From the NCBI GenBank assembly GCA_963696385.1, contig CAVOKF010000007.1:1216001-1280000 (forward strand): a DNA stretch of 64,000 nucleotides, written 5' to 3'. Made by a program: the position numbers and the translations under genes. The DNA is from an uncultured delta proteobacterium. Its GTDB lineage: Bacteria; Myxococcota_A; Polyangia; Polyangiales; Polyangiaceae. Of the stretch, positions 8,284-26,515 are shown in pieces (position 1 is the stretch's first letter; each line of letters starts with the position of its first letter). The notes beneath the pieces are model-generated. The model ran no database searches and was not told the DNA's origin. It worked only from the letters and a program-made list of their open reading frames with translations.

Positions 8284-8448
8284 GAAAAACCGGAGCCGCT
8301 GAAACAGCCTGAGTGGAAATGAACGCCGCAGGTGCACGCGCCTCACCCTGGGGGGCGGTTCGCGGACGTGGCTGGCGAGCCGGTCCCGGTCTCTCGGGTT
8401 GCCGGCGTGATCGATTTCAGCTTCCGGCGCATAGTACCGGGCGTGGTC

Positions 8449-9009
8449 ATGCGATTCGACGGAGCCTTGAGCATCCCATTCGTGGCGCCCCAGCAGCGTT
8501 CCGAGTGCGATCAGGTCCGCCTTCGCAAGGCGTTCGACCAGAACTTCGCGGGAGTCTGGCGTTTCCTGCGACGGATGGGCGTTCCCCACGATCGCGCCGA
8601 CGACGCAGCGCAGCAAGTCTTCCTGATTGCGCTCGAGGCATTGACGCGCATCTCCGAAGGAAGCGAGCGCGCGTTCATCTATGCGACGGCCGTGCGGTTG
8701 GCGCACGGCGTCCGTCGCAAAGGCGCGCGCGAGGTCGCCAGCGCGGCATTCGAGTGCGATCCGTCGCCGCTTCCGTCCCCCGACCAGCTCACGGACCAGA
8801 AGCGCTCTCGCGAGGTATTGGACGCCATCGTCACCAGCATGGATGTCGATATTCGAACGGTGTTCGTTCTCGCCGAATTCGACGGCTTCACGACCCCCGA
8901 GATCGCCGGCCTGCTGGAAATCCCTCTGGGTACCGCCGCGTCGCGGCTCAGGCGAGCGCGCGCGAAGTTCCAGGAACTGGCTCGAGCGGCCTACGGTGAC
9001 CTGCCATGA
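8449..9009 (+). CDS. ECF RNA polymerase sigma factor
   Basis: Region 2 VWRFLRRMGV..ADDAAQQVFL; region 4 VFVLAEFDGFTTPEIAGLLEIPLGTAASRLRRAR; start uncertain (ORF opens at 8332). Confidence 0.9.
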   Translation: MRFDGALSIPFVAPQQRSECDQVRLRKAFDQNFAGVWRFLRRMGVPHDRADDAAQQVFLIALEALTRISEGSERAFIYATAVRLAHGVRRKGAREVASAAFECDPSPLPSPDQLTDQKRSREVLDAIVTSMDVDIRTVFVLAEFDGFTTPEIAGLLEIPLGTAASRLRRARAKFQELARAAYGDLP

Positions 9010-9734
9010 ACGAAGCCCGACGACTCCTGGAGGCGGGCAGCGAACGCGAACGCGCGTTGCTGCGGGCGGGGGCTGACGAAAGGCCCAGCGCCACGAGCGT
9101 GCGCGCTGCCGCCCACCGACTGGGGCTCGCCCCGGCGGTGGCGCTCATCTCGGTCGGCTCGGCCGTCAAAGGCCTGCGATGGTCGTCGCGCATGGGCTAC
9201 GTGCTCGCGCCGACGCTGGGGATCGTGAGCTTGGGGTTGACCGCGCTTTATAGACTGTCGGCCCCTGCCCCGGCGGTGACCTCCGGAGTCGCCGCCACGT
9301 CGGTCGTCGCCGAGTCCCCCGGGCACACGACGTCGGCAACGAATGCCGCCGACCCCGCCGCGCAGCAAGCGCTCGCGAGTCCGGCAATGAACGCCCCGCC
9401 GCCAAGCATGGACTCCCCCGGGCTCACTCCAGCCCATCCCGCACAGCCGGCCACCGTCAGGCGTTCCGGGTTGAAGGAGCAGCTCGCCCTCATCGAACGC
9501 GCCCGCTCGCTCGAGGCGTCCGGCGACGCCGCCGCCGCGCTCCGCGCCGTCGAAGACTACGAACGCCGGTTCGCCGGCGGCGTTTTGGGCGAAGAGGCGT
9601 CCTTCATTCGCCTGCAGGCGGTCTCGGCGCTCGGCGACCGGGGTCGTGCGGTAGCTCTTGCTCAGCGATTCGTCGCCGAACACCCCACGAGCGTGTACGT
9701 CGACGGAGCGAAAGCGATTCTGCGAAGCCCGTAA
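9006..9734 (+). CDS. Putative anti-sigma factor-like membrane protein with C-terminal TPR-like domain
   Basis: ATGA overlap with the ECF gene; short N-terminal domain, one TM segment, Pro/Ala linker, helical C-terminus (LKEQLALIERAR..YERRFAGGVLGEEA..HPTSVY). Confidence 0.6.
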   Translation: MNEARRLLEAGSERERALLRAGADERPSATSVRAAAHRLGLAPAVALISVGSAVKGLRWSSRMGYVLAPTLGIVSLGLTALYRLSAPAPAVTSGVAATSVVAESPGHTTSATNAADPAAQQALASPAMNAPPPSMDSPGLTPAHPAQPATVRRSGLKEQLALIERARSLEASGDAAAALRAVEDYERRFAGGVLGEEASFIRLQAVSALGDRGRAVALAQRFVAEHPTSVYVDGAKAILRSP

Positions 9735-9758
9735 GGGTGTGCCCCCCCACGTAAGGGC

Positions 9759-11048
9759 TCACTCGAGGACAAGGCCCAACCCCAACGTGGCGTGCCCGAC
9801 AATCTTGGGCACCTCGAACACACTTGCGGACCCAAGTACGAATTGGTCGCGGTCGAGAGCGACGAGCGCGCCGAGCGCGATCTCGACGAACAGGGGTCCG
9901 AAAGCCACGATCCCGGCGGTCGCCTCGACCCCCGCTGCCGCCCACGGGCAATCCGCCGAGTGCGGCAGGTAGGTGTCTGAACCGGCGGCGCGTAGGACCC
10001 CGTATTCGGCGATCGCGCAAGGCCGAAAGATCCAGCGGGACAAAAAGGGCGCGGCCAGCGGGCACGCTTCGAGGGTCCCGGCGCCCAGACCGAAGCTCGC
10101 GACGCCCTGGGAGTAAGAGAAATCTCGATCCACCGTGTACGTCAGGCCGACCCGCAGCGAAGGAGCCCACATCGACTCGCCCTGCGCGACCGCCACTCCG
10201 GCGAGCGCGGCGACCCCCTGTGTGGGACCAGGAGCCATGCCCCAGGTGCTGATCGCGGCGGCGCTTCCGTGAAACGACCAGGTGCGCCGGCCGGCGGAGC
10301 GCGTGGCGCCCAACGCCCTCGCATCGCGGGCAGGGGTGAACGGCGGCGAACCGGCCCCCGAGGAGGAGGCCGGCGGCGGCAGCGCGGGCGTCAACGGCGA
10401 CGCTTGGGGGTTGGGGATCGGGGGCGGCGACACAAGAGGCGCCGGGGGCGCGGTCGCAGCCACTGCGGGCGAAGGCGCGACCACCGCGGGCGGAGACGTG
10501 GAGACTGCGGGCGAAGGCGCGACCACCGCGGACGCAGATGCCGACGCTGCAGGCGGAGGCGCCACCACGGCGGGCGCAGATGCCGAGACGGTTGGCGGAG
10601 ACGCGGAGGGGGCCGGGGCCGCGCGGGCAGGTACCGATGGCCGTGTGCCGGCGGATGCGCCTGCCGGCTCGATCGGACCGCCGGCGACGATCGCCAACGC
10701 GGCCATCAGCCCGATCGCCTCCGTCGCTTGGCGGCAGTCGGCCGCCACGATGGTGCGCTCGGACGTTCGCCCGTTGGGCTCGATGAGAAGGATCCGGCCG
10801 ACAGCGCCCTTTGCACTCGTCTGCACTTCGCCCCTGAGAAGCCGAGCGGGCGCACCCGACGGCGGCGTGCGTAGGGAGCCCACGCGGCTCCTCACGCGGC
10901 TCTCGAAATCCGCCAAATTGGGACACCCCGGGGGAGCGACGAACTCGAGACGCACGGCGGGCGGGGCGCTCTCGGCAAGCAGGCGTTGCGACGACCCGAC
11001 GACGGCGAGCACGAGTCCACCGGTCACCAAGCGGCAACGCATGCCCAT
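9759..11048 (-). CDS. Exported hypothetical protein with Cys-containing N-domain, Pro/Ala repeat linker and putative C-terminal beta-barrel
   Basis: Signal peptide; APPGCP...AADC; 14-aa repeats; amphipathic strands ending LGLGLVLE. Confidence 0.55.
   Translation of the reverse strand: MGMRCRLVTGGLVLAVVGSSQRLLAESAPPAVRLEFVAPPGCPNLADFESRVRSRVGSLRTPPSGAPARLLRGEVQTSAKGAVGRILLIEPNGRTSERTIVAADCRQATEAIGLMAALAIVAGGPIEPAGASAGTRPSVPARAAPAPSASPPTVSASAPAVVAPPPAASASASAVVAPSPAVSTSPPAVVAPSPAVAATAPPAPLVSPPPIPNPQASPLTPALPPPASSSGAGSPPFTPARDARALGATRSAGRRTWSFHGSAAAISTWGMAPGPTQGVAALAGVAVAQGESMWAPSLRVGLTYTVDRDFSYSQGVASFGLGAGTLEACPLAAPFLSRWIFRPCAIAEYGVLRAAGSDTYLPHSADCPWAAAGVEATAGIVAFGPLFVEIALGALVALDRDQFVLGSASVFEVPKIVGHATLGLGLVLE
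10462..10590. repeat. 42-bp in-frame tandem repeat, about 3 copies (AVVAP[SP]PA[AV] core)
   Basis: ACTGCGGGCGAAGGCGCGACCACCGCGG at 10462 and 10504; diverged copy at 10546. Confidence 0.8.
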
Positions 11049-11852: not shown

Positions 11853-13304
11853 GTGGTACGTCCCCTTGGCATGACGAGCGAAAGCGAGCCGGGCCAAGAG
11901 GGCCCGCGCCCGGTACCCCTGACCCGGTTCGAGCAGCGCTTCGGACACCCGCCGGGACTCGTCATCCTGTTCTTCGCGGAGATGTGGGAGCGATTCAGCT
12001 TCTACGGCATGCGCGGCCTGCTCAAGCTCTACATGGTCAACTACCTCTTCGTCACGGCCCGCGAAGCCCTGCAGGGGTGCACGAAGCTCGTGCCCCCGTG
12101 CGCTCTCACCCCCGGCAATCCGCACGACGTCTTCTTCTGGGACTCCATCCAGCGCATTCTTCCCCAGCGCCCCGCCGAGGCTGCCTCGCTTCTGTACGGG
12201 ACGTATACGGCGCTGGTCTATTTGACCCCTTTTTTCGGGGGCATCATCGCCGACCGATGGCTTGGCCAGCGCAAGGCCGTGGTCATCGGGGCCGTACTGA
12301 TGGCGCTCGGCCACTTCGTCATGGCGATCGAGAGTTCATTTTTCGTCGCTCTGATCCTGCTCATTCTGGGCAATGGCTCGTTCAAGCCGAACATCTCGAC
12401 CCAGGTCGGCAACCTGTATCGGCCGTCGGACCCCAGGCGCGACGGCGCATTCACCATTTTCTATATGGGCATCAACCTGGGTGCATTCATCGCAAACCTG
12501 GTCTGCGGTACGCTCGCCGCGATCTACGGATGGCACGTTGGGTTCGCGGCAGCCGGTGTGGGCATGATCCTCGGACTCTCGGTGTATCTTGCCGGACACC
12601 GGCACCTGGCCGAAGACAACCTCACCAAGGCGCGCCTGGCGCACGCGAGCCCGCCGGCAGCGCTCACCGGGGGGGAGAAGCGTCGAGTCGTGGCCCTGGT
12701 CGTCTTGTGCGCGCTCAACGTGGTGTTCTGGGCCGTTTACGAGCAGCAAGGCAACACCATGCAATCGTGGGCCGACGACCAGACTCGCTGGCCCAGGGTC
12801 TTCGGCTTCCAGATCCCATCGACCTGGTTCCAGTCGTTCAATCCCCTGGCCATCATCGTCCTCGCGCCGCTGCTCGATATCCTGTGGCGCAGGCAACGCG
12901 AACGCAACGCCGAGCCGACCACGCTCACCAAGATGGCGCTCGGATGCATCCTGCTCGGCGCGAGCTTCGTCGTGATGATCGCGGGTGCCCGGGTGGTGGG
13001 TGAGGGCCGCGGAAGCCCATTGTGGCCCCTGGGCTGCACCCTGCTCTTGACCATCGGGGAGCTCTATCTCTCACCCGTCGGGCTCTCGCTCGTGACCAAG
13101 GTGGCGCCGATTCGGATGGTTTCCATGTTGATGGGCATGTGGCTTCTGTCGAGCTTCTTCGGCAATTTCCTGAGTGGCGCGATCGGTGTCCTTTACACGC
13201 GCTGGTCCAAGGACGCGTTCTTTCTTCTCCTGACCTTGCTCGGCGTCGGCATCGGGTTGGCGATGCTCGCCGTCCGACGGCCGTTGAAGGCCGCCATGCA
13301 ATAG
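11853..13304 (+). CDS. Proton-dependent oligopeptide transporter (POT/PTR family MFS)
   Basis: FAEMWERFSFYGMR (ExxERFxYY-type), GGIIADRWLG, FKPNISTQVG, FYMGINLGA, GELYLSPVGLS. Confidence 0.95.
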   Translation: MVRPLGMTSESEPGQEGPRPVPLTRFEQRFGHPPGLVILFFAEMWERFSFYGMRGLLKLYMVNYLFVTAREALQGCTKLVPPCALTPGNPHDVFFWDSIQRILPQRPAEAASLLYGTYTALVYLTPFFGGIIADRWLGQRKAVVIGAVLMALGHFVMAIESSFFVALILLILGNGSFKPNISTQVGNLYRPSDPRRDGAFTIFYMGINLGAFIANLVCGTLAAIYGWHVGFAAAGVGMILGLSVYLAGHRHLAEDNLTKARLAHASPPAALTGGEKRRVVALVVLCALNVVFWAVYEQQGNTMQSWADDQTRWPRVFGFQIPSTWFQSFNPLAIIVLAPLLDILWRRQRERNAEPTTLTKMALGCILLGASFVVMIAGARVVGEGRGSPLWPLGCTLLLTIGELYLSPVGLSLVTKVAPIRMVSMLMGMWLLSSFFGNFLSGAIGVLYTRWSKDAFFLLLTLLGVGIGLAMLAVRRPLKAAMQ

Positions 13305-13306
13305 AG

Positions 13307-13879
13307 TCAACGGGGGCCGGGAAGCTTGCCGAGCTTCCGCTGCAGACTCCGCCGATGCAGGCCAAGCAGGCGCGCGGCTTGTGTGACGTTGCCCCCGCAC
13401 TCGACCATCACGCGCTCGATGTGCTCCCATTCGACCCGCGCGAGGCTCGGAACCTTCGCCGGCTGCGGCAACTCCGACGGTCGCGGTTGCAGCTCGAAGC
13501 CCGCAATGAGCTCATCGATATCGGCAGGCTTGGTCAGATAGTGGATGGCGCCTGAGCGCACGGCCTCGAGAGCCGTCGCAATGCTGCCATAGCCCGTCAA
13601 GACGACGATGCGCGTCGTGGGATCGAGTTCGTGCAGTCGGCGCACCACCGTGAGCCCGGATGCGCCTTGCAGCCGCAGGTCGACGACGGCGTACTCGGGA
13701 GTTTCTCGCTCCGCTCTCGCAATCGCTTCTCCGGGACTCCCCGCGCCCCAGGCCGCGAAACCGCGCTCTTCGAGCGCTTGCAGGAGCCGAAGACGAAAGG
13801 ACTCTTCGTCGTCGACGACGAGGACCGTCTTGCGCTCGATGTCGGCGGCCACGAGCGTCTGCGGCGACGGCTGACTCAT
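13307..13879 (-). CDS. regA: RegA/PrrA/ActR-family response regulator
   Basis: REC domain (VVDDE, VVDLRL, LTGYGSIATA) plus RegA-type HTH SLARVEWEHIERV..NVTQAARLLGLHRRSLQRKL; start MSQPSP overlaps the kinase stop. Confidence 0.88.
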   Translation of the reverse strand: MSQPSPQTLVAADIERKTVLVVDDEESFRLRLLQALEERGFAAWGAGSPGEAIARAERETPEYAVVDLRLQGASGLTVVRRLHELDPTTRIVVLTGYGSIATALEAVRSGAIHYLTKPADIDELIAGFELQPRPSELPQPAKVPSLARVEWEHIERVMVECGGNVTQAARLLGLHRRSLQRKLGKLPGPR

Positions 13880-15243
13880 GAGCCACCCGCAAGCGGGTCG
13901 AGCGGCAGCGCGAGCTCGGCATCGAGACCCCCGCCGGGCCTGGGCGAATACCGAAGCTCTCCACCGAGGCGCTGCGCGAATCTCTGGGCAAGGTAGACGC
14001 CGAGTCCGAGCCCTCCGGCCTGCGCTTTCGTTGTCAGGAAGGGCTGACCCACGCGCTGCAGCACCGACGCCGACATGCCGGGGCCGCGGTCCAGCACGTG
14101 GAAGACGAGCCGGTCGCCGACCGCGACGCAAAGCTCCACGGGCGCGTCCACCTTCGCCTCCTCGTGCGCCTCGACGGCATTCCGGACGAGGTTCGTAATC
14201 ATTTGCGCCAGCGTGTCCTTCGGCAACACGACGGTCGTGGCAGACGCTTGCGCGCCGTCGAGTCGGACGACGAGAGGCACACGTCCACGCGCAGCGGCGC
14301 GGTCGACCAAGCCCAAGACCTCGCCAGGTGTCGTGAACGCAGGCATTTCGCCCACCGACTCGCCAGCGCGTGCCGAGATGTCGCCCAGGATCTTCCGGCA
14401 ACGTGCGACTTCGCGGCAAATCAGCTGCGCGTCCGCCTGGAGCGCGCCACCGGAGCGCCCCTGCACGACGCCCGACGCCAGTTCCTTGGCGGCGAGACCG
14501 ATGGTGGCGAGGGGCGTAGCCAGCTCATGAGCCGCGTGAGCCGAGAAGCTCGAGAGCGTGGCCAACCTGTCGTTTTGCAGAGCCAGGTGCTCCACCGCCG
14601 CCAGGTGTCGATCGCGATCGCGCAGGGCCTGCGACACCTTGCCGATGAAGTAGGCGACAAACGAGGCCGTGAGCGCGTACGAGACCCACATTCCAAGCAG
14701 ATGCATCCTCGCGACCGATCCATGCCCATGCTCGTGGTGGTCGTGCACCGACCCGAGAAAGAGCGACCCGAAGGCAACGACGGTGAGGCCGACGAGTCCC
14801 CACGCCGCCCGCGGCGGCAGCAGCAGCGACGCGAGTGCGACGTGAACGAGGAAAAAGACGCTGAAGGGGTTTGCGGGGCCGCCGGAGACGTAGAGCATCG
14901 CCGTCAGACCGAGCGCGTCGACGACCAGCACGATGGGAATCAGGCGCTCGGCGGCGGTCGCGGCCGACGGCAATCGGGATAGGACGAGGTTGGAAGCCGC
15001 CGTCAGCCCGACAATCGTGCCCATCACGAGCCAGGGCAACTGCACCCCCAAGACAAAACGCGCCGTGCCCAGGGCGATCACCTGTCCGGCCACCGCACCC
15101 CAACGCAGACGCACCAGCCAGGGCAGCCCCACGAACGTTTCGGCCAAGGGGGGCACCGGGTTGGCTCGCGGTGCGACCGGCCATCCGCGGCGCACGGGGC
15201 CCGCAACGCCGCTCAGCGCGGGGATCTCGGCCTGCGGCAGCAT
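13876..15243 (-). CDS. regB: RegB/PrrB-family sensor histidine kinase
   Basis: WLVRLRW, quinone-site motif SGGPANPF, H-box AAHELATPL, redox Cys in EVARCRKIL, HATPase boxes; His-rich loop HDHHEHGHG. Confidence 0.88.
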   Translation of the reverse strand: MLPQAEIPALSGVAGPVRRGWPVAPRANPVPPLAETFVGLPWLVRLRWGAVAGQVIALGTARFVLGVQLPWLVMGTIVGLTAASNLVLSRLPSAATAAERLIPIVLVVDALGLTAMLYVSGGPANPFSVFFLVHVALASLLLPPRAAWGLVGLTVVAFGSLFLGSVHDHHEHGHGSVARMHLLGMWVSYALTASFVAYFIGKVSQALRDRDRHLAAVEHLALQNDRLATLSSFSAHAAHELATPLATIGLAAKELASGVVQGRSGGALQADAQLICREVARCRKILGDISARAGESVGEMPAFTTPGEVLGLVDRAAARGRVPLVVRLDGAQASATTVVLPKDTLAQMITNLVRNAVEAHEEAKVDAPVELCVAVGDRLVFHVLDRGPGMSASVLQRVGQPFLTTKAQAGGLGLGVYLAQRFAQRLGGELRYSPRPGGGLDAELALPLDPLAGGS

Positions 15244-15278
15244 GCCGATCACTTTAGTGCAGGAAGTCACCGGGCGAT

Positions 15279-15297
15279 GTGCGACAGAACGTCGCAC
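15279..15297. promoter_or_regulatory. RegA/RegR-type box 1 (upstream of regB)
   Basis: Perfect palindrome GTGCGAC-AGAAC-GTCGCAC; TAAAGT -10-like hexamer 7 nt before ATG 15243 on the minus strand. Confidence 0.7.
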
Positions 15298-15399
15298 CCC
15301 GGCGCGTGTCTCCGGCCCCGGGCAGCGGGCGTCCGCATCGGAGCGCCCGTGGGTCACCCTTCTGCCGTCATCCTCGCCGGTGCGGGGCCAGCGGGCTAT

Positions 15400-15414
15400 G
15401 CGACGATTTGCCGC
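15400..15414. promoter_or_regulatory. RegA/RegR-type box 2 (upstream of redoxin gene)
   Basis: GCGAC-GATTT-GCCGC, the reverse complement of GCGGC-N5-GTCGC. Confidence 0.7.
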
Positions 15415-15450
15415 GCCACGCAGCGCGCACACTCGCGGCAGACTCGCGGA

Positions 15451-16023
15451 ATGCCTCTTCGCGTCTACGTTCTACCGGCGCTTCTTGCGTGCGTCTCGTG
15501 CGCCGCGTCGGATCGGCCAGCTCCGCAAACACCGAGCGCGCCGCTCGTCGCCGTCGACGGAACGTCTCGCGACGCCCGCAGCGTCGCGGCCGACGCGCGC
15601 TTGACCGTCTTCATTTTCTTTTCGTCGCATTGCCACTGCCTTTCCGCGCACGATGCAAGGATACGCGCGCTTTTCGATGCCTATGGGCCGCGCGGCGTCC
15701 AATTCGCAATGGTGGACTCGGAGGTCCTGGCGACACCCGAAGCGGACGCGGTCGAAGCGCATCGCCGCGGCTACCGGTTCCCGATCTGGCTCGATCGGCA
15801 CGCCAGGCTGGCCGACGCACTCGGCGCCGAGTACGCCACGTATGCGGTCGTGGTCGACTCGCGCGGGAGCGTGCTCTACCGAGGCGGACTCGACAGCGAC
15901 AAGCAGCATTTGCACGACGACGCCCGGTTCTACTTGCGCGACGCGCTCGACGACCTCCTGGCGGGCCGCGCACCTCGTCGTGCCGAAGGAAAAACGCTCG
16001 GCTGCGCGCTCGTCAAATCGTAG
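15451..16023 (+). CDS. Redoxin/thioredoxin-fold lipoprotein
   Basis: Signal peptide with Cys; VFIFFSSHCHCLSAH, FPIWLD..LADALGA, VVVDSRGSVLYRGGLD, YLRDALDDLLAG, C-terminal GC. Confidence 0.75.
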   Translation: MPLRVYVLPALLACVSCAASDRPAPQTPSAPLVAVDGTSRDARSVAADARLTVFIFFSSHCHCLSAHDARIRALFDAYGPRGVQFAMVDSEVLATPEADAVEAHRRGYRFPIWLDRHARLADALGAEYATYAVVVDSRGSVLYRGGLDSDKQHLHDDARFYLRDALDDLLAGRAPRRAEGKTLGCALVKS

Positions 16024-16059
16024 AGACGGAGCCGGCAAGCGCCGAGGACAGCGGCCGCC

Positions 16060-16074
16060 GCGACGATTTGCCGC
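16060..16074. promoter_or_regulatory. RegA/RegR-type box 3
   Basis: GCGACGATTTGCCGC, identical to box 2, 37 nt before ATG 16112. Confidence 0.7.
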
Positions 16075-16111
16075 AGGCCGACCCTCGCGCGCATGTGCCA
16101 GGATGGCCCGC

Positions 16112-16561
16112 ATGCGAGTCGCGTGGACCACGGGTTGGCTCGCGCTGTCGGTCGCCTGCGGCACGGCGTCCACGCCCGAAACGTACGGCTTTACGGCACC
16201 GCCGATGCTCGCGCTCGTTTCGCGCGACTCCGCGCTACAAGTCGCCGTGCGAACTTCGCCGCAACCGCCGACGCGAGGCGAGCAAAGTGTCGAGTACACG
16301 ATCTCGGACACCACGGGCGCTCCGGCTTCGGGGCTGACCCTCGTCGTCGTACCCTGGATGCCGGCCATGGGGCACGGAACGGCCGTGACCCCGGTGGTCT
16401 CCGAGACCGCGCCCGGAACGTACCGGATCGCGGACGTCGACTTCTTCATGCCGGGGCAGTGGGTTCTCCGGACGACAATCTCGGGCCCCACCGGTTCGGA
16501 TGCAGCCGCCGACGGGGGCTCCCCGAGTGACTATGTCGAACCGTCGTTCGAAATACCCTGA
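16112..16561 (+). CDS. YtkA/FixH-like lipoprotein
   Basis: Lipobox SVAC; PWMPAMGHG, ETAPGTYRI..FFMPGQW typical of the YtkA-like Ig fold. Confidence 0.7.
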   Translation: MRVAWTTGWLALSVACGTASTPETYGFTAPPMLALVSRDSALQVAVRTSPQPPTRGEQSVEYTISDTTGAPASGLTLVVVPWMPAMGHGTAVTPVVSETAPGTYRIADVDFFMPGQWVLRTTISGPTGSDAAADGGSPSDYVEPSFEIP

Positions 16562-17480
16562 GGGGATAACCGCGCTCGGCGCCGCATGCGCAATCTTGGC
16601 CGTCTCCCCTTCCGCGCGCAGTCAGGCCTGTTGTGCGGGAACGGGGGCCGTGACGCCCGGGCGGCTGGCGTTGCACGAAGACGCGCTGCTCGGACTCCAG
16701 ACGAAGGTGGGGGACGTGGTCGGCTCGTTCAACCTGGCTGGGGACTACGTCGCGCCGCCCGCGAGAGCGTCGGAGCTCGACTTCGAAGAGGACCTGTTTG
16801 GCGCGGTCCGCTTCTTGGGTCGCGGACAAGTGGCTCTTCTCGTTCCGCTCGTCGAAACCTGGCGGGCCAGTCTTGGACAGTCGGCCTTCGGCGGGGGATT
16901 CGGCGACGTGAACGTGAGCGCCCGCTACGACTTCACGATCGCGGGGGCGTCGCTCGTCGTTCCAGGGGTTGCCGCGCTGGCGGGGCTGACTCTGCCGACC
17001 GGAAAGCCTCCCGACGCCTCCGACGTCGGGCCTCTGGCGACCGGCGCCACGGGCATCGGCGCAGCCCAATTGAACGCGGGGTTGGCCATCGAGAACGCCT
17101 TCGGGCCGTGGCTCGTCAACGCCACGGCCGTGCTCGCGGTGCGCACGGCGCGCACCGTCGGCTCTGGCGAGTCCGCCGTGCACGAACGGCTGGCGCCTCA
17201 GTGGACGATCCTCGCGGCACTGGCTTATGTGTTCCCAAACGACTGGGCGGCCGCGGTCAGCGCCTCGTACGCAGGCGAGGGAAACGCCACGATCAATGGC
17301 GTCGAGGCGCCCGGAACGTCGCATGGGCTTCCGACACTCTCGCTCTCGGGGGTCGCGCCCTTGAGCGACACCTGGAGACTCCAGGGAGCCCTTTACGACA
17401 ACGTGCCGATTCCCGGCGTCGGCGTGAACCAACCTGCCGACGCCGGCTTTTCGATCACACTGATTCGGTCGTGGCTTTGA
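16533..17480 (+). CDS. Putative outer-membrane beta-barrel / transporter-family protein
   Basis: Signal peptide followed by QACCAG; GGGFGDV..RYDF, GLTLPTG..ATGIG; amphipathic strands ending LIRSWL. Confidence 0.6.
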   Translation: MSNRRSKYPEGITALGAACAILAVSPSARSQACCAGTGAVTPGRLALHEDALLGLQTKVGDVVGSFNLAGDYVAPPARASELDFEEDLFGAVRFLGRGQVALLVPLVETWRASLGQSAFGGGFGDVNVSARYDFTIAGASLVVPGVAALAGLTLPTGKPPDASDVGPLATGATGIGAAQLNAGLAIENAFGPWLVNATAVLAVRTARTVGSGESAVHERLAPQWTILAALAYVFPNDWAAAVSASYAGEGNATINGVEAPGTSHGLPTLSLSGVAPLSDTWRLQGALYDNVPIPGVGVNQPADAGFSITLIRSWL

Positions 17481-17586
17481 CGGGGCGGGCCGCTCGCTCA
17501 GGATAGCCCCCGTTCGGTCCGGGCGACCCGCCGTCTTCGGCCACGCACCCCAGCGCGCTCCCCGAGTCGCGCCGCCAGGCCTGCCG

Positions 17587-18255
17587 TCAAGGCACGGTCA
17601 GGTGGAATGCCGCATGTCCGTGGGGTGAATCGGGGGCGACGTCCAAGCAATTCTCGTTGAAATGAAACCGGATCGTCCACGAGCCGGAGGCATCGAACTC
17701 AATCCGGCCGACGTACGTCCCGGGCGTCGTCTCGGTCATCTCGTAAATGTCTCCGCCAGGCGCATTGGTCGGTCCGGGGTGCGTCGTCATGTCGTCGCAG
17801 TAGCCTGCGCCGCCGTCGCCGGATTCGCTCGTGTAGTATTCGATATGGGTATGGGCACCCGTCAGCGGAGTGCTTGTCCCCAAGTACGTCGCTACGACGG
17901 TGAAGACGACGCCGGGGTCGCCTTCGCAGAGGGGCGTCGAGATCCATTCGACATGGTACTTGCAGTCATCGTCGTCGCCGTCTTGACCGTACATCGTCGC
18001 GGCGTACGCGCAGCCGCCGCCCGCGTCCCCCGTCTCGGTGCATCCGGCTGGGCTCACCATCTGAATCATCAAGCCCCCGTCGTCCTGGATGCAATGCGTA
18101 TCGGCCGGCCCCGGGGTCGCGCCGCCGGGGTCCAAGCAGGAACTGGCAGCCGTCGATGGACTGGATTTCGACGAGCAGGCGACGATGGCCATGGCCGTGA
18201 GCCAGAGCGGCACGCCCAGGACAGGTCGCCACTGTGAGATTCGACGAGCTCGCAT
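17587..18255 (-). CDS. Cys/His-rich lipoprotein with YtkA-like C-terminal domain
   Basis: RBS GAAAGGAA; lipobox IVAC; 8 further Cys; ETTPGTY..EFDASGSWTIRFH; C-terminal SPHGHAAFH. Confidence 0.6.
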   Translation of the reverse strand: MRARRISQWRPVLGVPLWLTAMAIVACSSKSSPSTAASSCLDPGGATPGPADTHCIQDDGGLMIQMVSPAGCTETGDAGGGCAYAATMYGQDGDDDDCKYHVEWISTPLCEGDPGVVFTVVATYLGTSTPLTGAHTHIEYYTSESGDGGAGYCDDMTTHPGPTNAPGGDIYEMTETTPGTYVGRIEFDASGSWTIRFHFNENCLDVAPDSPHGHAAFHLTVP

Positions 18256-18272
18256 GTTTCTTCCTTTCATCC

Positions 18273-18668
18273 TCAGTTTTCCGGGGCCTTGCACACGAGC
18301 CAACCAAGGAGCGCAGTCCGATCGACCGTAGAAAGCGGCCCCGCATCGGCGGGGGGCATCGCGCAGGCATTGACCTGAACGAGCATCGACCCTTGGCTTC
18401 GAGACACCCCCGAGTAGCTCGAGAAGTCGAACACGGACTGCTCGACGCCTCCGGTCAGGTGACACGGTCCGCACGACTGATCGACGATGGCCTGAACCTC
18501 GCCGCTCCAACTCGGTCGGGGGCTTGGGCAGGCCGCCGGAAGGTCGTGCGGGCAGACGGGTGGCGTGGATTCCGGATCCGCCCCCTGACAGCCCCCCACG
18601 CTCGACGCGACCAGAGCCACGCGCGCCAGGCGCATCACGGAGCCGGCGGTGCCGCGCTGAAACCGCAC
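18273..18668 (-). CDS. Small lipoprotein with c-type heme motif (CxxCH)
   Basis: Lipobox VGGC; PSW..CGPCH..MPP..LLGWL..APEN; GTG 18668 or ATG 18635 as start. Confidence 0.6.
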   Translation of the reverse strand: MRFQRGTAGSVMRLARVALVASSVGGCQGADPESTPPVCPHDLPAACPSPRPSWSGEVQAIVDQSCGPCHLTGGVEQSVFDFSSYSGVSRSQGSMLVQVNACAMPPADAGPLSTVDRTALLGWLVCKAPEN

Positions 18669-18705
18669 GAGCGCAGTCGTAGCGGCGACCGCCGCAAAGG
18701 GACAT

Positions 18706-18720
18706 GCGGTGTTTTGTCGC
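18706..18720. promoter_or_regulatory. RegA/RegR-type box 4
   Basis: (T)GCGGT-GTTTT-GTCGC(A), 37 nt upstream of GTG 18668 on the minus strand. Confidence 0.6.
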
Positions 18721-18775
18721 AGAGGCCCGACACCGCACCGAGGGGGGCGCGACCTTCATGGGGTAGCCTCATCGA

Positions 18776-19714
18776 GTGGCCTTGACTGCCGACCCGACCT
18801 TGAGCCGCCTGCAATCCGCCCTCGGGAGCGTTCTCGAAGGCAAGGACGACGTGATCGATCTGGTGCTCGTCGGCGTGCTGGCCGGCGGGCACGTTCTCTT
18901 GGAGGACGTGCCCGGAGTGGGCAAGACGACACTGGCCAAAGGCATTGCCCGCGTCTTCGACGTGAAATTTGCCCGCGTTCAGTTTACGCCGGACCTTCTG
19001 CCGAGCGACATTCTGGGCACGCAAATCCTCAATCCGCGCGAGGGGACGTTCTCATTTCATGAAGGCCCCATCTTCACGAACGTGCTCCTCGCGGACGAGA
19101 TCAATCGCGCGTCGCCGCGCACGCAGTCGGCACTCTTGGAAGCGATGAACGAGAGCCAAGCGACGATCGACGGCACGACCCATCCCCTGCCCCAGCCGTT
19201 CTTCGTCATTGCGACGCAAAATCCTGCGGATTTCTCGGGCACCTATCCGCTTCCCGAAGCGCAGCTCGATCGTTTTCTCCTGCGCGTCACGATCGGCTAC
19301 CCGAGTCCCGACGCGGAGGTGCGCATGTTATTTGGGCATCAGCGCTCTCTTCCCGTCGACGCCGTAGCGCGAGGCGCGAGCCGCGAAGCGCTCTTGTCGC
19401 TCCAGAGCCGTGTGCGCGATGTCCTCGTGAAAGACAATGTCGCTCGTTACATCGTCCGGATCGTCGCGCGCACGCGCGAATCGCCCGAGCTCGAACTCGG
19501 CGTGAGCCCGCGAGGCGCTCTGTCGCTATTCCGTGCCGCGCAAGCGCGTGCGGTCCTTCTGGGGCGGAGCTACGTGAGCCCTCAGGACGTGCAGGCACTC
19601 GCGAGCTCTGTCCTCGCGCACCGCGTGCGGCTGAGCGTCCAGGCCCGTCACGCCGGAAAGAGCGAGGCCACGTTCGTGGAGGGCCTCGTGCGCTCGATCG
19701 AGGTTCCCACGTGA
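18776..19714 (+). CDS. MoxR-family AAA+ ATPase
   Basis: LLEDVPGVGKTTLA, RVQFTPDLLPSD, LLADEINRASPRTQSALLEAM, YPLPEAQLDRF. Confidence 0.95.
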   Translation: MALTADPTLSRLQSALGSVLEGKDDVIDLVLVGVLAGGHVLLEDVPGVGKTTLAKGIARVFDVKFARVQFTPDLLPSDILGTQILNPREGTFSFHEGPIFTNVLLADEINRASPRTQSALLEAMNESQATIDGTTHPLPQPFFVIATQNPADFSGTYPLPEAQLDRFLLRVTIGYPSPDAEVRMLFGHQRSLPVDAVARGASREALLSLQSRVRDVLVKDNVARYIVRIVARTRESPELELGVSPRGALSLFRAAQARAVLLGRSYVSPQDVQALASSVLAHRVRLSVQARHAGKSEATFVEGLVRSIEVPT

Positions 19715-21027
19715 GCCCGCGAGCGCACTTTCGGGGTTGGACCCAACTCGCGGCCGACCTGAATCGCCTGAACCATATCCTCATTCCGGCCACCCCAGAG
19801 GAGCGCGACCGCTGGCGCGCGTCGCGCCTCGCACGGGCGCTTCGATGGCTGGTCTTCGCGTTCGGACGATTCAGCGCGGACGGCCAGGTTCTTCTGGGGT
19901 TCGCCGTCGTTGCCGCCGTCCTGGCGTTGGACGTCAAGACGTCGGACGTCTACATGGCATCAGCGGCACTGACGGGCCTTCTGTTCGCGAGCTGGGCCTG
20001 CTCCTTCGGGCTTCGCTTGCAGGGCGTGAAAGTGGACGTCGTCGTGCCCCGGCGCGTGACGGTCGGCGATAGAACGGTCTTCACGCTCGCCGTGCGAAAT
20101 GGCGGAGTGCGCGACCTCGATACCCTGGTGGTCCGCGGCCCATTTTTGCCTTGGGACGGGTCGTGGATCGTGCGCCGATCCGGGTTTGCGCGACTGCCGC
20201 GCCAGACGGCTTCGAGCACCGAACTCTCGGCGCGGTTTCGCTCGCGGGGCGAACACCATCTCGACCCGTTCCGCCTCCAGGCTCTCGTGCCGTTCGGCCT
20301 CGCGCTGGGACCCGCTCTCGTGACCGAGGGGGTGCGTTTTCTGGCGGTGCCTCGGATCGCCAACGTCGTCTCTCTGTCCTTGCCTCGCGGCCGCCGCCAG
20401 CAGCCAGGCGGCCTATGGGGCGCCTCGCGCACCGGCGACTCGCGTGAGATCATCGGAGTCCGACCCTACCGGTTCGGCGATCCGACGCGCGATTTGCACG
20501 CTCGAACGTGGGCGCGGGTCGGCCAACCCGTCGTGCGCGAGTACCGTGAGGAATACTTTTCGCGCGTCGGAATCGTCCTCGACACCGACCTGGACCAAGA
20601 TCCCGACGATCATCTCGAAGCGGGCATTTCGCTGGTCGCCGGAATCGTCGCCCAACTCGGCCGAACCGAGGCCCTGGTCGACGTCATCGTCATCGGAAAT
20701 ACGGCCTACGGGCTGTCTCTCGGGCGAGGACTCGGCACCCTGGATCGGGCGCTCGAACTTCTGGCCAACGTGGTGCCCGAGGGCCCCTTCCAGCCGAACG
20801 CACTCGCCGCGCGGATCCTGCCGCGTATGGCGTCGATCTCGTGTCTCGTGTTCGTCGCTCTGCGTTGGGACTCTCCACGTCGTGATTTTGCGCAAGAGAT
20901 CCGGTCTAGGGGAACCACCTGCGCCTCATTCGTGGTGACCGCACTCGGCACGCAAGCCGACAGCCAGCCCGGGGTAACCCGCATTTCGGCAGAGGCCGTT
21001 CGCGCCGGCCGTGCGGTCGCTCTGTGA
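19711..21027 (+). CDS. DUF58 domain protein
   Basis: GVRPYRFGDPTRDLHARTWAR..PVVREY, IVLDT; overlaps the MoxR gene in the usual triad arrangement. Confidence 0.85.
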   Translation: MSPRAHFRGWTQLAADLNRLNHILIPATPEERDRWRASRLARALRWLVFAFGRFSADGQVLLGFAVVAAVLALDVKTSDVYMASAALTGLLFASWACSFGLRLQGVKVDVVVPRRVTVGDRTVFTLAVRNGGVRDLDTLVVRGPFLPWDGSWIVRRSGFARLPRQTASSTELSARFRSRGEHHLDPFRLQALVPFGLALGPALVTEGVRFLAVPRIANVVSLSLPRGRRQQPGGLWGASRTGDSREIIGVRPYRFGDPTRDLHARTWARVGQPVVREYREEYFSRVGIVLDTDLDQDPDDHLEAGISLVAGIVAQLGRTEALVDVIVIGNTAYGLSLGRGLGTLDRALELLANVVPEGPFQPNALAARILPRMASISCLVFVALRWDSPRRDFAQEIRSRGTTCASFVVTALGTQADSQPGVTRISAEAVRAGRAVAL

Positions 21028-22905
21028 AAGAGCGCCTGCTTCGGGCGCTGCCGCCCGTCGTTGCGGCCGTCGCGCTCGCCGTAGCGTCTCGACAGCCGCT
21101 GCCGCCCGCACTCGCCGTCGTGTTCGCGCTCGGCAGCGTGGTGCTCTCGCCACGACTGCCGCTCGATCGCGCGACCCAGCGCCTGGCGATGATCGTGATG
21201 GTCTTGCTCACCATCGCGGGCCTCCGGGCATCCGGCATGCCGGTGAGCGCTCCCCACCTCGGAGCCTTTGGATACGGGTTCGCGCTCGCGCCTCTGCTGG
21301 GGGCGACTCTGCGCCTGTGGATCCGTGATGCCGAGGGGGGCCTCCGGGTCGACGTGGCGCTCGGATGGGTCTCGCTTCTCGCGACGGGCGGCGCGAAACC
21401 GGGAATCGCCTACCTGGCCTTCGTCTTGGCGTTTTTGTCTGCGGCGTTTGCGCTCCAGCGGTCCGAAGACCCCCATCGCCTGGCGTTCGCCTCGTTGTCG
21501 GCTCGCACGCGACGGGTCGCCGGGGTGCTGACCCTCCTGGCGACGGCCTCGGCCGTGGCCGCAGCCTCCGTCACGCACCTCGTCTACGAGCAAGTTCATC
21601 GGCGGCTTCGACACGCCTCGGAGACGGCTTTCGAAAACACGGTCGGTCTGTCGGACAGTGTTCGCCTCGGAACGGTGTCGGCCCTTCTGACCTCCGACAC
21701 CGTCGTCCTCCGCGTCGCGGGCCCTGAGAATCGACCGACTGCGGGGTGTCGTGCTCGACGAATACGGCGGCGGACGGTGGACCAAGGCAACGATCGAGAG
21801 TCTTGCCCAGATCGACGTTCCGCGCGTTCGACCCCGGGGTACCGACGTCATCGAAGTGCGTCTCGCGCATCCGGATCGGGACTACGCGTTTCTTCCTCTC
21901 GCAGCCGGCGACGTGGCGACGCCCGGCGGCGCAGTCCGCATCGATTCGATGGGCGCCGCGCATTCGGTCCCCGGAGAGGCGTTGCCGATCCTCTGGTTTC
22001 GGATGTCCGATGGGACCTCTTTCCGCCCCGCCGCGGCGCGGCTCGAAGACCTGCTGATGCCGCACAAGCTGCGCGCTCCACTGACGGCCATGGCGACCGA
22101 ATGGACCCGAGGAAAGGTCACACCGGAAGACTCTCTTGCGGCCATCGAGGCCCATCTTCGACGCGACTACACGTACTCCACGGCTCCGCAGCCCGAGACG
22201 TCGCTCGATCCCGTTCTCGAATTTTTGACGGTCTCTCACGAGGGTCACTGCGAATACTTCGCGAGCGCGCTCGCCCTGCTGGCGCGCTCGATCGGCATTC
22301 CGACCCGAATGGTCCTTGGCTATCGTGTCGGCGAGCGCAGCCCGGTGGGGTCTCACTACGTCGTTCGAAGGCGCAACGCGCACGCCTGGGTCGAGGCGTA
22401 TCTGCCCAGTGGCGCGTGGGCCATCGTCAATCCCACGCCCATGACCGAGCTGCCGCAGGACTTGCCCCACGACGAGCACGGCGTCACGGCCGCGTTCGAG
22501 GCGATCGCGTTCGGATGGGAGGTCCTGCAGGCGTGGCTCGCCGAGCGAAGCCTCTTCGAGCTCGGTGGTGCGGCCGTTGTCGGCGTCGTCATCTTCGCGC
22601 TGCAGCGCTGGCTGCGCACCCGCGGGCTCGTCGTCGGCGAGCGCGACGACGGCCTCGAATTCGATTCTCCGCCGGACGCCTACCTTCGGCTGGAGGCCGA
22701 GTTGGGGCGGCGCGGGCAAGGACGACGGCCAAGCGAGCCGATCGAGCGCTGGATCGCGCGACTCGACGATCCGGATCTCACCCCTGTCCTTCTGCGATAC
22801 GTGGGAGCACGCTACGGCAACGAAGACACGCAAGGGCTCGACCTCGCGCTCGGCGATGCGCTTGGACGGATCGTTCGCGGGTCGCCGCGAGGGCCTTCTG
22901 CATGA
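21024..22905 (+). CDS. Transglutaminase-like (TgpA-type) membrane protein, frameshifted near 21726
   Basis: TM N-terminus in the frame of 21024 up to VVLRVAGP; continues RIDRLRGVVLDEY..GHCEYFASA..AHAWVE..W..NPTP in the frame of 21751-22905. Confidence 0.8.
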
Positions 22906-23634: not shown

Positions 23635-25017
23635 GTGTCGGATCGCCAACCATCGTGCGACGCCTCAGCCCGGCGAGCTCTTTGGGCACGGGTCACGCTC
23701 GTCGCCGGAACGCTCGCCGTAGCATGCAGCAGCAATTCGTCCGCAACCGGGGGTAGCGCGGGGTCGTCGGCGTCCGCCTCCGGTCCCGGTCCCGCCGCCA
23801 CGGCCAGCAGCGGTGCCAGCACCGCCCCGGGGTCGCTCGCTGGTTCGAGCAGCTCGGCCGCTAGCTCCGTCTCGCCGTCTGGAGGCTTGGAAAGCGGCTC
23901 CAGCGGCTCGGGCGCTGCTTCCAGCAGCAGCTCGATCGCCCTCTCGAGCGGCAGCTCGAGCGCTTCTTCGAGCAACAGCGCAGGCGCCTCCTCCAGCGGC
24001 AACTCGAGCGCCTCGTCGAACAGCAGCTCGGGCGCCTCCTCGAGCAGCAACGCGAGCGCTTCCTCGAGCAGCGGCTCGAGCGGCAGCTCGGGCGCCTCCT
24101 CGAGCAGCAGCGCGGGGCCGGACGCCGGATCGTCATGCGGATTCGATCCGGTGACACCGAATGCCACTCCGCAGACACGTAACGTGCTGTGCTACCTGCA
24201 TAGCATTTACGGTAACGGGATCCTCTCGGGTCAAGAGGAAGACAACAACGACAACGGAATGAACACCGTTTACGCGGCCACCGGAAAGTACCCGGCCATT
24301 CGGTCCTTCGACGTGAACAACAGCGAAGCTCCGACCCAATGCGTCGCACAGTGGAACGACGGCGGCCTTTGCATGTTCGGCTACCACATGGGTATCAACG
24401 GCGGAACCTACAGCACCCCGACGGACATCGCGAGCGTACTCACGGCGGGCACGGCCGACAACACGAGCTTCAACCAGGATTTGGATCGGATCGCGCAGTA
24501 TGTACAGCCTCTGCAGACCGCCGGTGGAGTCGCGCTCTTGCGGCTATTCCACGAAGCCGGTGACGGCTGCGCCTGGTTCTGGTGGTCCATGGGGACCTCC
24601 GAGCAGTGGCAAGAGCTCTTCAAGTACGCATTCAATTATTTGACGGCGACCAAGGGTCTCAATAACGTTTTATGGTTTTCACCCCTTTGCAGCAATCCGA
24701 GCTCTGCGTACAATCCCGGTTCGCAATACATCGATTTCGGTGGGGCGGACGACTACGTCGCGGCGGGGGACACGGAACCGCTCACGAGTCTGTTCAATCA
24801 AACCGAAACCGCGTTCCCGAACATGATGGTTGCGCTGCACGAGTGCGGCACGATTCCGGATCCCACGCTCCTCAAGTCGAGCAGCACAAAATGGCTGTTC
24901 TTCAACGTCTGGGCGAGCCCCTACTTCGACGCCCCGTACAATACGACCGCGCATCTGCAGGAGGTCTATTCAAACCCTTACGTGATTACGCGGGACAAGC
25001 TTCCTAGCTTCAAATGA
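23635..25017 (+). CDS. Glycoside hydrolase family 26 (beta-mannanase-like) lipoprotein with Ser-rich linker
   Basis: Lipobox AVAC; ILSGQ, TGKYPAI, RLFHEAGDG..WFWW (acid/base), ALHECG (nucleophile), NPYVITRDKLP. Confidence 0.85.
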   Translation: MSDRQPSCDASARRALWARVTLVAGTLAVACSSNSSATGGSAGSSASASGPGPAATASSGASTAPGSLAGSSSSAASSVSPSGGLESGSSGSGAASSSSSIALSSGSSSASSSNSAGASSSGNSSASSNSSSGASSSSNASASSSSGSSGSSGASSSSSAGPDAGSSCGFDPVTPNATPQTRNVLCYLHSIYGNGILSGQEEDNNDNGMNTVYAATGKYPAIRSFDVNNSEAPTQCVAQWNDGGLCMFGYHMGINGGTYSTPTDIASVLTAGTADNTSFNQDLDRIAQYVQPLQTAGGVALLRLFHEAGDGCAWFWWSMGTSEQWQELFKYAFNYLTATKGLNNVLWFSPLCSNPSSAYNPGSQYIDFGGADDYVAAGDTEPLTSLFNQTETAFPNMMVALHECGTIPDPTLLKSSSTKWLFFNVWASPYFDAPYNTTAHLQEVYSNPYVITRDKLPSFK

Positions 25018-25108
25018 GCGGCGCGTTGCCCCCTGAGACCGGCGGCGGCGGTTGCGGCGAGGGCGCGTCCATGCCGTCGTGGCCGGTCGTGGTAGAGTGC
25101 GCGCCCGA

Positions 25109-26515
25109 ATGGACCTGCTGCTGGCCCACGGCTACTTCCTCGCGGAGGATCTTCACGAGCGCGGCGTGATGAAGCCGTACCCTACGCTCGGTCTACTCTA
25201 CATCTCGGCGTACCTGAAGGCGCAAGGGCACGGCGTCGGCGTCTTCGATGCCACGTTTCAGACGCTGGCGGATTTCGACGAGCGCGTTCGCGCCGAGCGG
25301 CCGCGGGCCGTGGGCCTCTACACGAACCTGATGACGAAGTTCAACGTCCTCAAGATGATCGCCGCGTGCCGCGCCGCGGGCGCGAAGGTCGTTCTCGGCG
25401 GGCCCGAGCCTGCGATGTACGCGGAAGAATACCTCGGGCACGGCGCGGACGTCATCGTGGTCGGCGAGGGCGAGCACACGATGGCGGAGCTCGTGTCGAA
25501 GGACTTCGCCGAGTTGGCGTCGATTGCGGGGATCATCTTCCGCCGCGACGACGGAACGGTGGTGCGCAATCCAGCCCGCCCGTACATCAGCGACCTCGAT
25601 ACGCTGCCCTTTCCGGACCGCGAAGCGATCGACCTGGATCGGTACGTCCACGTGTGGCGGACCCACCACGGGATGGGGTCCGTCTCGCTCATTTGCGCGC
25701 GCGGGTGCCCGTTTCACTGTCAGTGGTGCAGCCACGCGGTATACGGAAACAGTCACCGCCGCCGCTCCCCAGCCAACGTCGTTGCGGAGCTCGAGATGCT
25801 GATGGCGCGCTACAAGCCGGATCAGATCTGGTACGCGGACGACGTGTTCACCATCCACCGCAAGTGGTTTTTCCAGTATGCGGCGCTCTTGACCGACCGC
25901 GGCCTCAAGATTCCATTCGAGTGCATTTCGCGCTCGGACTGCCTCAATGAGGAGGTGGTCCAGAAGCTCGCCGACATCGGCTGCTATCGGCTCTGGCTCG
26001 GTTCGGAGTCGGGCAGCCAACGCGTGCTCGACGCGATGCGCCGAGGCGTCAAAGTCGAGGACGTGCAAGCGAAGGCCAAGCTCCTTCAGCGCCACGGCAT
26101 CCAGGTCGGCATGTTCATCATGCTCGGTTACGATGGCGAGACCCTGCCGGACATCGAAGCGACCACCGAGCACCTCAAAGTCGCCAATCCCGACGTCTTT
26201 CTGACGACGGTCGCTTACCCGATCAAAGGGACCGGGTACTACAAGGCCGTCGAGCGACGGGTGTTGGCCCGCTCCGATTGGAATGGGACTACCGATCGCG
26301 ATCTTTCGGTCCAGGGGCGCTACTCGCCTCGCTTCTACTCGTTTGCGACCCGATGGATGGTCAACGCCGTGGCGCTGCACCGTGAATGGCAAGGGCCGCG
26401 CCGGCCCGTACCCCTCGCAAAAACGTTGGCTCATACGGTCATCGGCCGGGCCGGCATGCTCGTCACGCAGCACGAGCGCGAAGGCGCGGGCGCGGGCGCG
26501 CAAGCCCTTCGATGA
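25109..26515 (+). CDS. B12-binding domain radical SAM protein (#1)
   Basis: PTLGLLYISAYL N-terminal B12 domain, GEGE, RGCPFHCQWC, YADDVF, GSESGSQRVL. Confidence 0.92.
   Translation: MDLLLAHGYFLAEDLHERGVMKPYPTLGLLYISAYLKAQGHGVGVFDATFQTLADFDERVRAERPRAVGLYTNLMTKFNVLKMIAACRAAGAKVVLGGPEPAMYAEEYLGHGADVIVVGEGEHTMAELVSKDFAELASIAGIIFRRDDGTVVRNPARPYISDLDTLPFPDREAIDLDRYVHVWRTHHGMGSVSLICARGCPFHCQWCSHAVYGNSHRRRSPANVVAELEMLMARYKPDQIWYADDVFTIHRKWFFQYAALLTDRGLKIPFECISRSDCLNEEVVQKLADIGCYRLWLGSESGSQRVLDAMRRGVKVEDVQAKAKLLQRHGIQVGMFIMLGYDGETLPDIEATTEHLKVANPDVFLTTVAYPIKGTGYYKAVERRVLARSDWNGTTDRDLSVQGRYSPRFYSFATRWMVNAVALHREWQGPRRPVPLAKTLAHTVIGRAGMLVTQHEREGAGAGAQALR

Follow-up and report, generated by a model that had tools for sequence, protein, structure and literature searches.

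An apparently conserved RegA-box regulon, predicted to serve copper supply, in an uncultured member of the Polyangiaceae

The 64,000-nucleotide stretch of contig CAVOKF010000007.1 analysed here (hereafter the window), from an uncultured delta proteobacterium of the Polyangiaceae, encodes a RegB/RegA-type two-component system and four RegA/RegR-type boxes, each lying a fixed distance ahead of a predicted −10 hexamer and of a start codon. The neighbouring RegA probably binds these boxes and thereby turns on a few genes whose predicted role is to provide respiratory oxidases with copper, with a SCO gene far outside the window among them. Sequence comparison establishes the box with its orientation, constant spacing, and targets, as well as the lack of a box in the corresponding clusters of relatives in which RegBA was not found. 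Taken together, these findings point to a regulon that is conserved among relatives, belongs to a regulator of a known family, and is devoted to predicted copper supply, a leader peptide apparently being able to take its place.

The four boxes lie where a preliminary description of this DNA had placed them, at 15281..15295 (box 1, minus strand), 15400..15414 (box 2, plus), 16060..16074 (box 3, plus), and 18706..18720 (box 4, minus), with boxes 2 and 3 being identical 15-mers. Between the end of the box and the start codon there are 37 nt for regB (ATG, 15243), 36 nt for a redoxin gene (ATG, 15451), 37 nt for a YtkA-like gene (ATG, 16112), and 37 nt for a CxxCH cytochrome c gene (GTG, 18668), again as described. 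Box 1 is predicted to autoregulate regBA and occupies the same position in the relatives G003 and G006, box 2 would belong to the redoxin promoter and is kept in G003 and G025, box 3 to a ytkA-barrel promoter, and box 4 to the promoter of the cytochrome c gene and of a gene for a 222-aa lipoprotein. The hexamers reported 6–7 nt before each start codon were also verified, with the predicted −10 elements TAAAGT (regBA promoter, 15251..15256, minus), CAGACT (redoxin promoter, 15439..15444, plus), CAGGAT (ytkA promoter, 16099..16104, plus), and TACGAC (CxxCH cytochrome promoter, 18676..18681, minus; the same hexamer in G003 and G025) all starting exactly 24 nt past their boxes. CAGGAT could also serve as a ribosome site, the relatives keeping YAnnnT and not AGGA at this position. 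The conserved unit is thus a box, 24 nt, and a predicted −10 hexamer of the form YAnnnT; a scan of positions 13000–19000 with the sigma-70 consensus found no promoter.

The identity of the sites as RegA/RegR-type is borne out by published operators. The boxes match the RegR/SpdR-type pattern GCGRC-N5-GYCGC, box 4 with one mismatch in the right half of the inverted repeat, and the consensus of 31 sites described below, T-GCGAC-AAYWT-GCCGC-A, stands beside the RegR site GCGGC-N5-GTCGC (10.1101/2023.01.17.523660; a site of RegR/SpdR type is also given in PMC4064962) and the SpdR site CTGCGAC-N5-GTCGCAG, the latter tested by electrophoretic mobility shift assay (PMC4830024). The bare core GCGAC-N5-RYCGC has 498 matches on both strands of the whole genome (66% GC), with ATG or GTG at a gap of 36 or 37 nt in 34, YA at offset 24 in 28, and both features in five, four of which are the window sites, for which this criterion, having been derived from them, is circular.

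A less circular view is given by a matrix trained on nine box-plus-hexamer sites picked by eye from seven other genomes, with the genome containing the window (G000, 6.9 Mb) and its near-twins G003 and G025 excluded; one of the nine is the same 15-mer as boxes 2 and 3, making the test only partly independent. The scan of the whole genome with this matrix, a check proposed in the preliminary description, ranks boxes 3, 4, 2, and 1 at positions 1, 2, 4, and 7 among 453 positions with a box score of at least 11, rank 6 being box 2 in reverse reading. At rank 5 (G000:C7:718805, minus), the hexamer TATACT follows the box after 24 nt and a GTG codon after 37 nt. The gene behind this site, ~510 kb from the window (G000:C7:718090-718819, minus; L063:8088-8820), is a SCO1/SenC gene and a predicted member of the regulon, its protein matching PF02630 above the cut-off (E 5e-25) and having both the CxxxC motif and the distal His. 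Summed over the five sites, the hexamer score is positive at a spacer of 24 nt alone among the spacers of 19–29 nt tried. This fifth box is kept in four relatives (G003, G005, G007, and G015) with ATG at a gap of 37–39 nt; neither G008, a genome without a RegBA match, nor any of the 23 more distant SCO loci has it, and sco lies directly downstream of regA in G005 and G007. Because a box of the same geometry, kept in four relatives, heads this distant gene, the predicted RegA regulon here is small but not self-contained, contrary to the earlier proposal. Ten other top hits of the scan, among them C5:1310601, C5:1025810, C7:240639, C4:559679, and C8:26512, lie mostly inside open reading frames (ORFs) or lack a −10 element, and none was accepted.

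The matrix scan found no site with a box score above 12.4 around the three COX1 (heme-copper oxidase) loci or the two cytochrome b genes of G000. Cytochrome bd subunit I was not found in this genome, which is 96% complete, and respiration in G000 may depend on copper oxidases. The preliminary view of RegA as a local rather than a global redox regulator holds for the size of the regulon and the lack of boxes at oxidase and cytochrome b loci; a loss of redox control is not shown, as RegB retains its quinone motif and redox-active Cys.

The box recurs well beyond this genome. Selection on the box alone yields 34 sites, seven of them from the near-twins G003 and G025, over the 423 kb that surround the RegA and SCO homologues found in the order, where the background of this genome predicts 0.3. 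TA occurs at offset 24 in 12 of the 34 and at offset 23 in four, against 15 of 952 at other offsets, supporting the conserved geometry of box and −10 element by a selection blind to the hexamer. A class-wide set of 29 RegA loci adds 16 sites in 101 kb, six with TA at offset 24. The motif unit recurs next to RegA homologues across the order and the class, ~100-fold above background. Pooling gives 53 non-redundant sites, training loci included, of which 31 are promoter-oriented with YA at offset 24; among these, T occupies hexamer position 6 in 19 and the first −35 position (at 17-nt spacing) in 19, neither feature having been used in selection. Pattern counts across 61 genomes (the tallies including the unpublished G010 and G027, on which no individual claim depends) were too noisy to be of use, with both matches and reversed-pattern controls numbering a few per genome.

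Leaderless transcripts, also proposed in the preliminary description, fare less uniformly. A predicted −10 element 6–8 nt ahead of the start codon is present at all five sites including sco, pairing with the anti-Shine-Dalgarno sequence is weak for regB, redoxin, cytochrome c, and sco (−2.8 to +0.4 kcal/mol; −6.5 kcal/mol for ytkA), and ATG falls at a gap of 35–40 nt in 13 of the 31 promoter-oriented sites against 0–4 in ten other windows of equal width. On the other hand, the relatives G004, G006, G016, G023, and G035 have box and hexamer with the start codon 53–91 nt off and a purine-rich ribosome site, G004, G006, and G035 being among those that keep box and −10 element at a gap of 60–90 nt. 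As many relatives hold box and hexamer with a leader added, the predicted promoter appears to be the invariant, with leaderless starts frequent yet optional. Assembled contigs of one RNA run from a close relative (93–94% alike), which cannot show transcript starts, cover each gene in pieces, three ending 11–19 nt inside the predicted regB, redoxin, and ytkA starts and another entering the regB-redoxin gap. Of the papers found on leaderless transcription starts in Myxococcus, none is, by its title, concerned with these promoters.

An extra ~220 bp in G003 (L031:6770), absent in G000, carries its own box between the cytochrome c gene and the gene for the 222-aa protein, and with this box standing ahead of the latter gene, boxes would therefore track the heads of transcription units through rearrangements. 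Loci of other families (L110, L111, L115, L119, L122, L162, L170, and L175) have a box directly before regA and not regB. Two strong boxes in G005 (L037:11815 and 11950) are aimed away from a leader-regB unit, toward the 3′ end of a cytochrome c gene; no convincing ORF follows, and they possibly mark a small RNA or a relic.

The proteins encoded behind the boxes share a theme missing from the earlier interpretation, with the SCO protein, two YtkA/CtaK-type lipoproteins, a CxC redoxin, and a Cys-Cys-tipped barrel likely pointing, by family, motif, and fold, to copper supply for oxidases. The exported redoxin-fold protein (15451..16023, plus; Pfam PF08534) carries CxC-x3-H and a C-terminal GC motif, with CxC..H present in 30 of 33 homologue matches and the three misses being partial matches that begin past the motif. 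The YtkA/CtaK-like lipoprotein (16112..16561, plus; PF13115, E 4e-11) carries MPxMGHG. It is followed by a predicted outer-membrane beta-barrel of COG4313/FapF fold (16533..17480, plus, the start being uncertain between 16500 and 16533), which has no Pfam or NCBIfam family, and whose mature N-terminus after the signal is QACC in 28 of 28 aligned sequences, one further homologue that could not be parsed having been left out. The structure model of the barrel (pLDDT 88) resembles FapF (E 9e-18) and the COG4313 channel 4RL8 (E 2e-14) in Foldseek searches. On the opposite strand, the mono-heme CxxCH cytochrome c lipoprotein (18273..18668, minus) matches PF13442 below the cut-off (E 0.006) and keeps CxxCH in 18 of 19 homologue matches; the GTG at 18668 may not be its true start, since a lipoprotein signal is likewise obtained from the in-frame ATG at 18635. 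The gene for the 222-aa lipoprotein (17587..18255, minus) is predicted to be co-transcribed from box 4. This protein is a distant relative of YtkA (E 0.11 itself, E 2e-5 in a homologue), with a C-terminal PHGH conserved in the alignment and the Helicobacter pylori copper protein CrdA as the top match of its modelled fold (E 2e-4, TM 0.66 of target).

Genes preceded by boxes in the relatives encode YtkA, SCO, Cys-tipped proteins of no family, CcmH (G015), RegA or RegB, and MbnP copper-binding proteins (G047, G049, and G109), several having no Pfam or NCBIfam family. A cytochrome cd1 nitrite reductase gene in G040 (L112:3078-5009) is likewise preceded by a box and a −10 element, with ATG at a gap of 35 nt.

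The adjacent RegA, named as the regulator in the preliminary description, is the only RegA found in the whole genome. The regA gene (13307..13879, minus) encodes a RegA/PrrA/ActR-like response regulator with a receiver domain and a Fis-type helix-turn-helix (HTH; Pfam PF00072 and PF02954), and regB (13876..15243, minus) a RegB/PrrB/ActS-like membrane histidine kinase, assigned by its best NCBIfam match and motif alignment. Both score below the NCBIfam equivalog cut-offs, RegA reaching 176 bits of the 250 required for NF033791 and RegB 223 of the 350 for NF033792, yet these families are the best matches by far; the NF033792 cut-off is passed by none of the 61 genomes searched. RegB keeps the motif GGxxNPF, named as the quinone-binding motif of RegB (PMC8191878), as GGPANPF at residues 121–127, together with the H-box AAHELATPL and the redox-active Cys in ARCRKIL, and has a His-rich extracytoplasmic loop at residues ~167–175. 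A Cys lies just ahead of the HTH of RegA, its equivalence to the Cys156 described in PMC9147068 being judged by position, without alignment to the Rhodobacter protein.

The relationship between boxes and RegBA was traced through 32 cluster loci, 14 from 13 RegBA-negative genomes and 18 from 16 RegA-positive genomes, where RegBA-negative means that neither RegA nor a close RegB was found in the scored portion of the candidates (54 and 23 per genome) from genomes 77–97% complete. A box scoring at least 18 is absent from all 14 cluster loci of the 13 RegBA-negative genomes. Instead, ten of these 13 genomes have at the cluster a leader gene, read upstream of the operon head, whose product of 130–150 aa starts with a stretch judged by eye to be hydrophobic, contains HxCxC-x6-7-CxxC, and carries a TPPPR-type motif at its C-terminus. 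Eighteen such ORFs in 14 genomes (L037:12041-12445, L107:5736-6188, L040:12179-12631, and 15 more), none with a Pfam match, lie directly upstream of copper-related operons or of regB, the latter in G005 and G007; G000 itself has none (best E 0.98 with the leader profile). Starred branches of a tree of the 28 barrels force at least two changes of box label, with the leader-headed G008 sister to the box-headed G006; the genomes compared are kin, and these counts are not independent events. Relatives lacking RegBA appear to hand control of copper supply to a predicted copper-sensing leader peptide which, by analogy with known copper-responsive upstream ORFs, would give translational control in place of RegA boxes in many of them.

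These observations suggest the following mechanism. The box would be centred near −44, abutting a degenerate −35 element, a promoter-proximal position at which phosphorylated RegA would activate the housekeeping polymerase, with transcription in this genome expected to begin at or beside the start codon. The signal is likely indirect: a shortage of copper would lower heme-copper oxidase activity, quinol would accumulate, and RegB would read it through the retained GGxxNPF motif, the quinone pool having been described as an input of RegB (PMC5506826, PMC8191878, PMC9147068). RegA would in turn activate its own operon regBA, a positive feedback, together with the genes for SCO, the cytochrome c, the redoxin, the barrel, and the YtkA lipoproteins.

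A number of findings weigh against this picture. With respect to the promoter unit, 22 of the 53 pooled box sites lack YA at offset 24, some of them being the palindrome read in reverse, the regB box of G025 lies 38 nt from its best −10 hexamer, matrix rank 3 (C5:1310601) falls inside an ORF with a poor hexamer and looks like chance, and one RNA contig extends past the predicted CxxCH start (a single run, from which DNA was not excluded). Regarding copper, binding by the targets is predicted from family, motif, and fold, and the cd1 nitrite reductase of G040 is not a copper protein. Finally, the comparison of clusters is blurred by the limits of the RegBA-negative class as defined above, which includes G019 and G020 with weak RegB-profile matches (~1e-31); by the RegA-positive loci, of which only nine of 18 have a box scoring at least 18, seven of these nine being training sources; and by four RegA-positive genomes that also have a leader at the cluster, such that the two controls are not strictly exclusive.

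The main rival, conceivable if rather unlikely, is that the same boxes and targets serve a RegB/RegA system that detects copper itself, by way of the His-rich loop in RegB or the Cys preceding the HTH of RegA, instead of the quinone pool. Most of the aligned RegBs have a His/Met-rich loop, nearly all targets are predicted copper proteins, CutF/CruR-like leaders take the place of boxes, and Rhodobacter capsulatus RegA is reported to bind copper and to dimerise via Cys156 (PMC9147068), with a Cys preceding the HTH here too. However, this RegB and those of most relatives have retained GGxxNPF and the redox-active Cys, the length of the loop is variable, with few His residues in G050, G046, and G035, and a box lies ahead of the cd1 nitrite reductase gene in G040. 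Quinone and copper inputs can coexist.

Repression by RegA, or a mixture of activation and repression, exerted from beside the −35 element appears improbable. Repressor sites are usually loosely placed, and the strict phase of 24 nt in one orientation, together with the weak core promoters, fits contact with an activator better than it fits repression. In favour of repression, the box abuts the predicted −35 position, and RegA homologues are reported to repress some genes (PMC5359404). Least probable of all is that the boxes bind another regulator, or that the true RegA regulon is wide with degenerate sites missed by the matrix, since, despite the absence of a strong consensus in ChIP of PrrA (PMC4263372), the description of RegA/PrrA/RegR sites as degenerate (PMC5506826), and the scores of both proteins under the equivalog cut-offs, the boxes cluster beside regBA, vanish where RegBA was not found, precede regA itself in several genomes, and have no counterpart above a score of 12.4 near oxidase or cytochrome b loci.

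Activation of a small predicted copper-supply regulon by RegA can be extended, tentatively and with less confidence than the regulon itself, to a view in which the role of RegB/RegA has shrunk from global redox control to the regulation of copper supply, possibly with copper itself read via the His-rich loop, and in which the system is interchangeable with an uncatalogued family of Cys-rich TPPPR leaders, the same operon having switched at least twice between transcriptional control through RegA boxes and translational control through a copper-sensing nascent chain and the leader standing before regBA itself in two genomes.

Several other genes of the window were noted. Divergent from box 4, 18776-22905 encodes a MoxR AAA ATPase, an unannotated neighbour, and a transglutaminase-like gene whose reading is split over overlapping frames (starts at 21024 and 21751), possibly by a frameshift. 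An ECF sigma factor, a likely anti-sigma gene, and an opposing membrane protein occupy 8332-11048. No link to the boxes was seen for a polysaccharide lyase family 4-like protein (6169-8283), a POT peptide transporter (11853-13304), a GH26 hydrolase (23635-25017), or a B12-binding radical SAM enzyme (25052-26515).

The regulon bears on three questions. Tight, rare sites phased to the −10 element make this a favourable system in which to study the activation of polymerase by a Fis-type RegA, at leaderless promoters among others; membership of the regulon gives a likely role, oxidase copper supply, to unannotated envelope proteins (the Cys-Cys-tipped barrel, the CxC redoxin, and the CrdA-like lipoprotein); and a single operon that alternates between two-component and leader-peptide control provides a natural experiment on the actual signal of RegB. 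No literature was found joining RegB/RegA with Myxococcus and copper, or with copper uptake or MbnP, in a search that left most subscription journals outside, and the available part of PMC12914433 makes no mention of RegA.

The box type and the link between RegA and SenC are already known, regA and regB being reported as co-transcribed with senC in R. capsulatus. The system described here shares with the RegB/RegA family the kinase with GGxxNPF, H-box, and redox-active Cys, the receiver and Fis-type HTH with a preceding Cys, the GCG-N-GC inverted repeat with a 5-nt spacer, and the association with SCO/SenC. It differs in that known sites are degenerate, with ChIP of PrrA and RegA describing wide regulons and a weak consensus (PMC4263372, PMC5359404), whereas here they vary little and keep a constant phase to the −10 element; in that the structural genes of oxidases and electron transport lack boxes, the targets being predicted copper-supply genes of the envelope; and in that both proteins score under the NCBIfam cut-offs. 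SpdS/SpdR of Caulobacter crescentus (PMC4830024) has a near-identical site, rare in the genome, and directly controls very few genes, namely cspD and CC0517; the available part of that report describes neither a copper kit nor a leader-peptide swap. CtaK (YtkA) of Bacillus subtilis works with Sco in CuA assembly (PMC13344008, PMC9145763), the YtkA-domain lipoproteins and Sco supporting assembly at low copper, whilst here their counterparts, of predicted function, are joined under a two-component system by an outer-membrane barrel, a CxC redoxin, and a cytochrome c.

The leaders of the relatives resemble CruR (DUF2946, Bordetella pertussis) and CutF (R. capsulatus), upstream ORFs that respond to copper and encode a Cys motif and prolines at the C-terminus (PMC9426467, PMC9973294), in their length of ~130–150 aa, hydrophobic N-terminus, Cys cluster, and C-terminal proline motif. 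Membership in DUF2946 was rejected, with PF11162 matching none of 13 leaders at E ≤ 1, HxCxC-x6-7-CxxC as the Cys cluster, TPPPR in place of RAPP, and a CxxC-to-proline spacing of 66–74 as opposed to 45. The leader family may already be contained in the supplementary lists of CutF-like/DUF2946 proteins.

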